Sequence record: PZ583739.1 | Length of the DNA stretch: 64,000 nucleotides | Origin: a phage | Direction: 5' to 3' (one strand) | Shown: positions 7,462 to 11,631 of the stretch, in pieces | Layout of the letters: the number at the start of each line of letters is the position of its first letter | Position numbering within the stretch: position 1 is the first letter of the stretch | The notes under the pieces: generated by a model | The model's input: only the letters and a program-made list of their open reading frames with translations | Told to the model about the DNA's origin: nothing | The model's database searches: none | Program-made: the position numbers and the translations under genes

Positions 7462-7653
7462 AGGTTTTCCATGGTAATTGGATTCGAGTTTGTTTTACAG
7501 TAAGCTCGACCTCGGGATTCAATTTTTTCAATCGGAGACATTCTTCCCAGGCGTCTGATTCGTTACTGAACGTATAGAAACGGCCGTCAATAACTACAAT
7601 CTTTTTCTGATTGGTAATATTAACAATGGCCCAGGTATCGCAATAATAGCCCA

Positions 7654-7654
<1 letters not shown>
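7454..7654 (-). CDS. hypothetical protein
   Basis: 66-aa ORF just upstream of pseT. Confidence 0.4.
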
Positions 7655-8876
<1,222 letters not shown>

Positions 8877-9333: not shown

Positions 9334-9683
9334 TTGGTGAGCTCCTGGAAGTCCCGGGCGAACTTATCAAAAGACTGATTAATCTGTTTTTCAACTAATT
9401 TAGGCTTCGCTACCACAACCTTAGTACGTTTTGCATCTGCACGGAGTTTATCATTTTCCTTCTGCAGAAGTTCAACATATTCCTGCCGCTCCTGGTCAAG
9501 GAGATTAATTTGATTAATTTGGTCTTTTACTGATTGCAGATTTTTCGCGTTATCTTCTGCAACTTTGGTGACCGCAGCCACCTCTGTCTTGAGATTATCT
9601 ACTTTTGCTTTTAGATAGAAACCACTACCAGCAGTTACTACCAGGGCGAGCATAAGCCCTGCAGTGAGATTACTTATTTGCAT
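9330..9683 (-). CDS. i-spanin-like protein (pseT.3 position)
   Basis: N-terminal TM helix (LMLALVVTAGSGFYL) followed by coiled-coil-like sequence; 117 aa. Confidence 0.6.
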   Translation of the reverse strand: MQISNLTAGLMLALVVTAGSGFYLKAKVDNLKTEVAAVTKVAEDNAKNLQSVKDQINQINLLDQERQEYVELLQKENDKLRADAKRTKVVVAKPKLVEKQINQSFDKFARDFQELTK

Positions 9684-10177
9684 AACTTGATGATTACCTC
9701 AACAATATCATCCTGGGATAAACCATTCAGGAGGATGTGATTTGTACTGTCAGACGCTGAAATGCGGAACTGATTACCAACTTCATCCGCCATATCATCC
9801 TGGGTTAACACTGGGTGTTTAATTCCCAGGCGGTGTTGAAGTGTCAGGGGTTCAACCACAACATAACAAACACATCCATTGATATGTACATTAGGTTGGG
9901 TCTGGTTAATGAACACTTCTGCATCATATTTAACCAAATGGTTCTTTAAGAATTCAACCATTTCAGGAACAGATTCATGCAGTGCTTCTTTCCGCTCTTC
10001 TGATTTTTTATCGCGATATTCTTTTTGTTTCGCCTTCAACTTTTTGTTAGAGGCGAGTTTTTTCCGCAGGTCAGTCATAAGACCAATTTTCTTGGTCCCT
10101 TTATAGACATAAATTCCGTCATGACGGTCACCATATTCATTGACAATCATTTCATTTGAAATCAGTTGCATATCCAT
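9674..10177 (-). CDS. alc: probable Alc-like protein (assigned by position and 167-aa length)
   Basis: start at ATG 10177 with SD GAGGAAAATATT; lies between rnlA and the spanins as in T4. Confidence 0.4.
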   Translation of the reverse strand: MDMQLISNEMIVNEYGDRHDGIYVYKGTKKIGLMTDLRKKLASNKKLKAKQKEYRDKKSEERKEALHESVPEMVEFLKNHLVKYDAEVFINQTQPNVHINGCVCYVVVEPLTLQHRLGIKHPVLTQDDMADEVGNQFRISASDSTNHILLNGLSQDDIVEVIIKLCK

Positions 10178-10190
10178 AATATTTTCCTCA

Positions 10191-10424
10191 TTAGTAGCGG
10201 TTATAACCCCGGGGACCAAAAGAGTTGGCACCCAGGCGCTCATCTTTCTTTTTGGCTCTTGCTCTAAACCCGGAATCACCTGTTTGAGCTTTCAGTTCTT
10301 TTAACAATTTGGCCTTTAGGTCAGTAATGAAACCAATCCGGCGGTCTCCCTTATAGACATAGATTCCATCATTTCTGTCACCATATGCCTTTGTAACTCT
10401 GTCATTTGTAATTAAGTTTAACAT
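10191..10424 (-). CDS. small protein paralogous to the N-terminal module of the downstream alc-like gene
   Basis: 77 aa from ATG 10424; shares YGDRxDGIYVYKGxxxIGxxTDLxxKL with the 9674-10177 product. Confidence 0.4.
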   Translation of the reverse strand: MLNLITNDRVTKAYGDRNDGIYVYKGDRRIGFITDLKAKLLKELKAQTGDSGFRARAKKKDERLGANSFGPRGYNRY

Positions 10425-10454
10425 GTTTTGGTCCTCATCAGTAGTTGATGGAAC

Positions 10455-10488
10455 CATTATGTATAGAAAGAAGGGGCTTGTACACCCC
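10455..10488 (-). promoter_or_regulatory. composite terminator hairpin / early promoter
   Basis: hairpin GGGG-cttgtaca-CCCC (10473-10488) follows rnlA; its loop carries the GTGTACAA -35-like motif, CATAAT at 10456-10461 rc. Confidence 0.4.
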
Positions 10489-10494
10489 TTTTTA

Positions 10495-11631
10495 TTATTC
10501 AGGAAGGATTACTTCCGCCTGGTAGTCTAACGGAATGTAAAGTTTATGATTTTTAAGGAAAACTTTATTGATTTGAGCAATCGTTTGTTCAGTTTCCTGT
10601 GGGCGTTGATAGGTGTTCATTAATACGGAGAACAATCCCGGATATGGTTTACATAACTCTTGACCTTTAATCGCAAACTCGCGACGGTCTTTTCCTGCTA
10701 ACTGTTTTTGTGCATCAAGCAACAGTCCAAGAGTGTTGGACAGATAATCCAGATGTGTTGCAGTAAAGGCAGTAACTTTTTCACGAGCATAAGTATCGCC
10801 AGTAAACATGGCAATAACATCATCCGCGCCGCCAGCAACAACAACTTCAAACAGTCGCTCATTATTATTAATGGAGTCTTTAGTATGATGCAGAGCACAA
10901 TACCATTCTGTTTTCATCTTGAACTTCTGACCGTTAGCCATCTCATAGACGAAGCCTTCAATCTCTTTCATACCGCGAACATTCTCAATGGTTGCCGGGT
11001 CATATGCTTCAACCAGGAAAGGACGAAGCGCTGCATCTTTGAACAGCTCCTGATAAGGAATATATTCACCAGTTTCATTATGACGAACGTTCAGTAAAAT
11101 CAGGTCACGTTCCTGGTAAGGCAAAACAATGCGGTTGGTCGGTGCAACATATTCCATGTTGCATGTATAACCAGCTTCAGTGATTTCAGTCACACGAGCC
11201 CTGAATGCACTGCGATGTTCTTGTTTAAACACCTGCAAGGATTCAGCTGCTTGGGAGCTTTTGATTGACCCTTTGGATTTAAAGGCGATATTGGTCTGGT
11301 CCATATAAGTGGAAACCAAACTACCATCAGCTTTTGCAGTAACCAGGACAACTTCATCAAGGTTAAGGTCCATGGTCATTGGATTCTCACCCAGATTAAA
11401 GAATTTTTCCATAGGACGAGCAGCAATGCGAACTGGACCATTGTCATCCATTTCAAACATAATGCCACGGCACTCCAGCGCATCATCAAGGAGCCAATCA
11501 CTATAGGAAGCATAGTTATAGCTAAAGATGCGGAACTTAGTTTCAAATGGAGAAACAAAATCCGTATAGAAAAACTTACCTTTATCAGATTCGGCGCAAA
11601 GCTTCATTAAGTTATCATATAATTCAATCAT
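10495..11631 (-). CDS. rnlA: RNA ligase 1
   Basis: 378 aa; ...FFYTDFVSPF...FRIFSYNYASYSDWLLDDALECRGIMFEMDDNGPVRIAARPMEKFFNL... matches T4 gp63 as remembered. Confidence 0.9.
   Translation of the reverse strand: MIELYDNLMKLCAESDKGKFFYTDFVSPFETKFRIFSYNYASYSDWLLDDALECRGIMFEMDDNGPVRIAARPMEKFFNLGENPMTMDLNLDEVVLVTAKADGSLVSTYMDQTNIAFKSKGSIKSSQAAESLQVFKQEHRSAFRARVTEITEAGYTCNMEYVAPTNRIVLPYQERDLILLNVRHNETGEYIPYQELFKDAALRPFLVEAYDPATIENVRGMKEIEGFVYEMANGQKFKMKTEWYCALHHTKDSINNNERLFEVVVAGGADDVIAMFTGDTYAREKVTAFTATHLDYLSNTLGLLLDAQKQLAGKDRREFAIKGQELCKPYPGLFSVLMNTYQRPQETEQTIAQINKVFLKNHKLYIPLDYQAEVILPE

Follow-up and report, generated by a model that had tools for sequence, protein, structure and literature searches.

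Why would a T4-like phage carry, directly ahead of its alc gene, a second and much shorter open reading frame (ORF) that begins like alc itself? The question is raised by record PZ583739.1, a 64,000-nucleotide (nt) stretch of phage DNA (hereafter, the window) from a T4-like Gaprivervirus of the SP18/VR7/VR20 group. On its minus strand, between rnlA and the 167-amino-acid (aa) gene alc (9674..10177), which encodes an inhibitor of host transcription, lies a 77-aa ORF (10191..10424) that ends 13 nt upstream of alc. An initial annotation, made from the letters alone, took the short ORF for a stand-alone duplicate of the N-terminal module of its neighbour, and the ORF list confirms the positions it gives for both and puts both on the minus strand. 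We found that the short ORF is an alcB-type gene, whose product adds to the Alc head a short helix and then a basic tail of its own, and we tentatively propose that it encodes a retooled docking head.

The motif common to the two ORFs, noted earlier at both the protein and the DNA level, held up in pairwise alignment. BLASTP aligned the 167-aa and 77-aa products without gaps, with 19 of 34 positions identical and 27 of 34 positive (E=6e-14). The Pfam ALC profile (PF17527; gathering cutoff, 25 bits) matched residues 2–59 of the 77-aa protein at profile positions 3–62 of 177 (E=3.4e-10, 40.3 bits); equivalent short ORFs in the metagenomic sequences L007 and L009 scored 29.5 bits and 23.2 bits, the latter just below the cutoff. 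An alignment that included 20 diverse Alc proteins showed that all the family-invariant head residues (I, G, DGI, G, DL) are retained in the short ORF. The head codons were identical at 70 of 105 nt (66.7%) and at 34 of 42 nt in the YGDRxDGIYVYKG core, and the local DNA score was 21, compared with 8.9 ± 1.1 (maximum 17) for codon-shuffled controls and 13 for the best match elsewhere in the window. Together, the BLASTP and Pfam matches, the invariant residues and the DNA score relative to shuffles indicate real homology rather than chance. The portion of Alc paralogous to the short ORF is the head module, aa 1–37 (10067..10177, minus strand), the similarity extending over some 36–60 N-terminal residues in all. 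The alc product matched ALC over residues 1–166 (E=1.8e-48) and phrog_1253 (E=1.6e-73), and the gene occupies the T4-like position; the 77-aa protein does not have the full ALC architecture of head, long helix and C-terminal alpha/beta domain (profile 1–177), as its model has no C-terminal domain. Judged by these matches, the 77-aa protein is a partial paralogue of Alc and not an Alc orthologue.

Across 13 Gaprivervirus sequences (8 distinct), the mean ratio of non-synonymous to synonymous substitution rates (dN/dS) was 0.09 for alcB and 0.12 for alc, and 17 of the 22 polymorphic sites in alcB fell at codon position 3. For codons 37–77, dN/dS was 0.02 with a dS of 0.25, indicating that it is the protein, not the DNA, that is constrained. 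This substitution pattern marks the 77-aa ORF as a genuine protein-coding gene under selection, and its earlier description as a separate gene, paralogous to the N-terminal part of Alc and in tandem with alc, was borne out. The further statement that it carries only the N-terminal module did not hold as worded: residues ~52–77, with a dN/dS of 0.02, form a conserved motif that is absent from Alc. In six sequences representing three lineages, this family-specific tail (aa 52–77; 10194..10271, minus strand) follows the pattern GF-x(9)-R-x-G-x-NSFGP-x3-N-[KR]-[FY]; G52, F53, R63, G65, N67-S-F-G-P71, N75 and the C-terminal aromatic are conserved, and R63, G65, NSFGP67–71 and N75 are invariant. The motif is held in L007, L008 and L009 despite third-codon-position differences, and the GANSFGP codons of the window and L007 differ only synonymously. 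In all three lineages the tail has a net charge of +5, five to seven glycines and four aromatics. It had no match in Pfam and no second copy within the window.

In its AlphaFold2 model (predicted local distance difference test, pLDDT, 91.9), Alc consists of a head (helix 8–15, hairpin 23–26/29–33), a helix spanning residues 34–80 and an alpha/beta domain (87–166), with a single 47-residue helix linking the head to the C-terminal domain. The modelled head module of the short protein (aa 1–36; 10317..10424, minus strand) is made of the same elements as Alc residues 8–33, with a helix at 7–14 and strands at 22–25 and 28–32 (pLDDT ~90). Its helix is confident only to residues ~45–50 and is over by about residue 48–63, and no C-terminal domain follows; the tail, with a pLDDT below 50, is predicted to be disordered on its own. 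The isoelectric point (pI) of the short protein is 10.1, compared with 6.7 for Alc, in which residues 65–167 are acidic (net −7, pI 5.1) and stalk residues 38–64 carry a net charge of +8. The PDB holds no solved structure of Alc or a relative.

Next, we asked how widespread and how old the short gene is. Among 50,697 phage records, tblastn found the head in 797 and a near-full-length match to the 77-aa protein in 35, of which 34 were intact at at least 95% identity; the matching places exceeded the matching records by 36, which fits a second head copy in about that many genomes. The near-full-length carriers among the records inspected were Gaprivervirus, within which identity to the window ORF ranged from 95 to 100%, the ORF of phage vB_EcoM_RZ being 100% identical. 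In an exhaustive profile search of 1.84 billion representative proteins, stand-alone heads occurred in few forms only: the Gaprivervirus cluster (38 members), one 78-aa metagenomic protein, a frameshifted alc of phage G28 and a 34-aa fragment. The same search yielded no credible head module beyond Alc and alcB; a 1,434-aa RTX-like repeat protein (P0032) reached 38 bits by summing six weak repeats and was set aside as spurious. The G28 protein (P0027; Escherichia phage vB_EcoM-G28, a Tequatrovirus; YP_010069786) has 63 aa, with a T4-type head and an out-of-frame tail; it reflects either a natural alc mutation or an error in sequencing, and it has no relation to the alcB family. When metagenomes were scanned with the family alignment, a further Gaprivervirus copy and two full-length Alc genes came up, but no new alcB lineage.

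Metagenomic L007/L008 and L009, whose own Alc proteins are 76–77% identical to that of the window, have a 77–78-aa ALC-family ORF in the same place, and these short ORFs are 47–51% identical to the window's. In L010–L014 (Alc identity 64% and 61%), rnlA is followed directly by alc, as in T4. Relatives thus divide into those with two copies (Gaprivervirus, L007/L008 and L009) and those with one (T4 and L010–L014), a distribution that gives alcB a single origin, on the common branch of Gaprivervirus and its sister lineages. On this sequence evidence, alcB is an old paralogue of the Alc head and not a recent one.

These results qualify the local duplication proposed by the initial annotation. The true paralogue in tandem stands; the duplication is not fresh, as a third of the head nucleotides differ. 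The head of the short ORF is 55% identical to the Alc of its own genome and 50–68% identical to the Alc of other phages; as the Alc of its own genome resembles it no more than the others do, only adjacency points to a duplication in place. A 13-nt stretch around the Shine–Dalgarno (SD) sequence, CTACTRATGAGGA, is common to the upstream regions of both ATGs (p ~0.01) in this lineage only, and the tandem position and the shared CTACTRATGAGGA would fit a partial tandem duplication. Alternatively, the 5′ part of alc may have been captured from a co-infecting T4-like phage by illegitimate or unequal recombination. In favour of capture, the head is 55% identical to the head of its own Alc and 60–68% identical to those of T4-type (P0014) and P0026 Alc, with tblastn giving 61.8% to the Alc of CIP9 and HY03; over ~40 residues, however, such differences are within noise, and the tandem position and the CTACTRATGAGGA before both ATGs fit local duplication, which leaves capture rather unlikely. 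The idea, formed by eye, that the tail derives from a duplicated promoter and leader was rejected, because local alignment against shuffles supported only the 13-nt SD stretch; no leader–tail similarity was found in L007 or L009, nor any after removal of the SD (p 0.56–0.99).

Variation within Gaprivervirus is uneven along alc. Codons ~18–57 (window ~10007–10126) are a divergence hot spot with two alleles, which show 16 and 9–13 differences per 60 nt compared with 0–5 in the flanks; dS is 0.53 for codons 1–62 and 0.06 for codons 63–167. By its pattern, the hot spot looks like a recombinational import. The alc alleles at codons ~18–57 and those of the short ORF occur in free combination; in CJ20, for instance, an SP18-type short ORF is paired with a window-type alc. 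Ongoing gene conversion or co-evolution of the two heads was therefore rejected: the allele combinations are shuffled, and the short ORFs share derived features with one another and not with their cognate Alc.

The 1.6 kb around alcB and alc is 98.6% identical to Yersinia phage vB_YenM_P8 and 92–98% identical to 33 other records. The minus-strand order is nrdB, denA, rnlA (10495–11631), the 77-aa ORF, alc, the pseT.3/pseT.2 spanins and pseT; T4 has the same order minus the 77-aa ORF, with alc likewise between rnlA and pseT.3. In SP18, a homing-endonuclease gene on the opposite strand overlaps the end of pseT (L001 715–1440; compare window ~7650–8560); no counterpart was noticed in the window ORF list, which was given a casual look and no proper examination in this respect.

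Directly after the rnlA stop, a consensus scan placed a T4-early-type promoter-like site (10456..10484, minus strand), with a −35 element TGTACA (10484–10479; one mismatch), a 17-nt spacer and a −10 element CATAAT (10461–10456). T4 early promoters follow the pattern GTTTAC(A/T), ~17 nt, TAnnAT. At the homologous spot upstream of alc, T4 has GTTTACA-17-TATAGT, where its record annotates no promoter, and L007, L009, L010 and L013 have GTTTAC(A/T)-17-TAnnAT at the same position. Since the promoter-like site precedes alc in phages without alcB and precedes alcB in the window, alcB is probably the first cistron of the early alc message. A terminator-like 7-bp G+C-rich hairpin, AAGGGGTGTACAAGCCCCTT followed by CTTTCT (10471..10490, minus strand), also lies directly after the rnlA stop, overlaps the −35 element and is conserved in all Gaprivervirus sequences aligned; in T4, the promoter-like site is present and the hairpin is absent.

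The start of alcB at ATG 10424 aligns with Met1 of Alc and is preceded at 7 nt by the SD sequence GAGGA, read from the sequence (10432..10436, minus strand), which has an equivalent GAGG before the short-ORF start in L007 and L009. By these signals, ATG 10424, giving 77 aa, is the right start. The phage RZ record (L005 2392–2658) annotates the short ORF as 88 aa; its start, corresponding to ATG 10457, was rejected: no SD precedes it, it falls within the −10 hexamer, and selection is seen in the 77-aa frame. A GTG-extended alc of 201 aa, found in some GenBank records, likewise lacks an SD and was rejected; in the CJ20 and DCP80 records alc is extended upstream (201 and 189 aa) and overlaps alcB (L020 375–980; L021 629–1198), and in phage 212 the product names around alcB and alc seem shifted by one gene. 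At the other end, the alcB stop TAA (10193–10191) is followed after one base by the alc GAGGA (10189–10185), forming the junction TAA-T-GAGGA (10185..10193, minus strand) with the alc ATG 7 nt later. The earlier reading of this stop as lying inside the downstream SD was essentially right, apart from the one base that separates the two in the window; in VR7-type alleles, through a 3-nt difference, and likewise in L007 and L009, the ORF terminates at the TGA within TGAGGA. The stop/SD junction is thus conserved in three lineages, and the ribosome-binding stretch of alc, ATGAGGAAAATATTATG, is the same in lineages without alcB. The RNA fold at the start of the short ORF was no better than shuffles.

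The gene is already annotated in public records. The SP18 GenBank record (2010) lists alca and alcb, the latter as "similar to N-terminal region of bacteriophage JS98 Alc", and VR7 lists the gene as ORF243c; in PHROGs v4 the window ORF matched all 77 positions of phrog_17715 (1–77/77, E=9.1e-54), a family labelled 'inhibitor of host transcription', a name transferred from Alc on the basis of similarity. SP18 alcb (YP_003934864), VR7 ORF243c and phrog_17715 are the same family in the same place between rnlA and alc, with no structural difference from the window gene. We found no paper on alcB in the literature.

What, then, does AlcB do? T4 Alc terminates transcription on DNA with unmodified cytosine and needs dispensable region I of the RNA polymerase beta subunit (PMC2988021, citing Kashlev 1993 and Severinov 1994 for the Alc–RNA polymerase link); its discrimination of cytosine DNA and its termination mechanism are described as not known (PMC2988021). 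AlcB shares with T4 Alc (PF17527, phrog_1253) the N-terminal head, the start of the long helix and the early-transcription context, but lacks ~105 residues, namely the alpha/beta C-terminal domain in its entirety and the greater part of the 47-residue helix, and has its own conserved basic tail; nothing suggests that AlcB alone terminates transcription. We propose, with a probability of roughly 40%, that alcB encodes a retooled docking head, an early protein that reaches the target of Alc by means of the Alc head and has its tail as an effector. AlcB and Alc would be produced early, from one message and at a constant ratio. The head would be an autonomous docking unit at the end of the Alc stalk, and, as AlcB has retained it, AlcB would be likely to reach the same target, docking where the Alc head docks, most probably on host RNA polymerase. 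The basic, disordered tail would act as an effector, a short linear motif that becomes folded when bound to a partner. This partner may be the nucleic acid of the elongation complex, or else an acidic surface, for example that of the Alc C-terminal domain (pI 5.1); the strong conservation of the tail speaks for an effector role over simple competition. The net role would be to modulate or complement Alc-dependent host shutoff in the clade, AlcB being neither a second Alc nor a passive fragment.

Several observations weigh against this proposal. The Alc head might instead serve oligomerisation or another role. In fold searches, the short model gave no PDB match with E below 4, and its BFVD matches were to the Alc family only, so that the modelled head fold appears to be without an analogue outside that family in PDB or BFVD. 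The promoter is predicted from consensus and homology, and the window-wide promoter scan was not above chance (11 sites, compared with 8.0 ± 2.5). Obligatory translational coupling through a hairpin over the alc SD was rejected, as the RNA fold of the alcB/alc junction was no better than shuffles (z = −0.53). Last, one contig, L006 (ENA ERZ27275844 k141_9694, 2440–2667), has a private 35-nt deletion that frameshifts the alcB tail, and its ORF continues, in a different frame, into the start of alc (75 aa, P0002); L022 has this allele in intact form. Either the tail would be dispensable in some genome or the L006 genome would be defective.

Two other accounts of AlcB action seem unlikely, and to the same degree. 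In the first, raised as a possibility in the initial annotation, AlcB is purely a decoy or dominant-negative form that takes the Alc docking site, or caps Alc, in either case without causing termination, and so damps Alc. The conserved head, the missing Alc C-terminal domain and the predicted co-expression from just upstream of alc all suit such a role, which could spare the phage's own DNA, and the cytosine chemistry of Gaprivervirus makes a tuning of Alc conceivable. A competitor needs only the head, however, yet the tail is the most constrained part of AlcB and is conserved across lineages, which argues against a pure decoy; an inhibitor encoded in a fixed ratio ahead of its target on the same early message would also have no obvious temporal control. 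MicroProteins such as Id and LITTLE ZIPPER, small proteins that derive from one interaction domain of a larger regulator and have a gene of their own, sequester their parent into inactive dimers. AlcB is a conceptual analogue, but simple sequestration is not suggested by its extra conserved tail, nor by the absence of co-variation with Alc.

In the second account, Alc oligomerises by way of its head and stalk, and AlcB binds it directly as a subunit of mixed complexes with altered activity or specificity. A tandem pair of cistrons so closely spaced, with its stop/SD junction conserved, is what subunits of one complex typically show, and the +5 tail complements the acidic C-terminal part of Alc (net −7, pI 5.1). 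Against this, Alc and short-ORF alleles show no co-variation, and their free shuffling disfavours direct assembly; the stalk, highly charged at residues 38–64 (net +8) and seemingly with few hydrophobic positions, looks unlike a coiled-coil interface. AlcB may also be compared with AsiA and RpbA, small RNA-polymerase-directed proteins of the T4 early and middle periods (PMC2988021, PMC8076793). AlcB is likewise small, predicted to be early and presumed to target the transcription machinery of the host; no relationship to them in sequence or in fold was seen, the fold searches giving Alc-family matches only.

A further reading, which we consider improbable, is that alcB is an adaptation to the DNA chemistry of the clade, retuning the self/non-self discrimination of Alc or protecting phage templates. 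Its base is the restriction of alcB to Gaprivervirus and two or three sister metagenomic lineages. Gaprivervirus lacks the gene-42 deoxycytidine monophosphate hydroxymethylase (PMC12115623, PMC8056088); it has no glucosylation yet has modified cytosines (PMC12115623, PMC8056088, PMC6326788), and it is reported to be without glucosyltransferases and to keep alc and denB. In VR7 DNA the cytosines are modified and non-glycosylated (PMC6326788). The cytosine modification of the clade would, on this reading, block Alc less well than glucosyl-hydroxymethylcytosine does. That the ORF is a decaying duplication remnant or is untranslated, as the L006 frameshift and the truncated alc fragments that arise by frameshift in the unrelated G28 might hint, is barely credible given the dN/dS of 0.09, the 17 of 22 polymorphisms at third positions, the intact ORF in 34 phage records, the intact L006 allele in L022 and the retention of the gene with a good SD across lineages only ~50% identical.

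On the DNA-chemistry reading, AlcB, as an isolated Alc head, would also help to assign docking on RNA polymerase to one half of Alc and sensing of the template to the other. In other respects, alcB is an ordinary phage accessory gene, apparently a partial duplication that was later retooled. A stand-alone Alc head kept under selection offers a natural reagent for the binding partner of the head and for its separability from the C-terminal domain, and alcB may possibly provide a handle on the cytosine modification of the clade.
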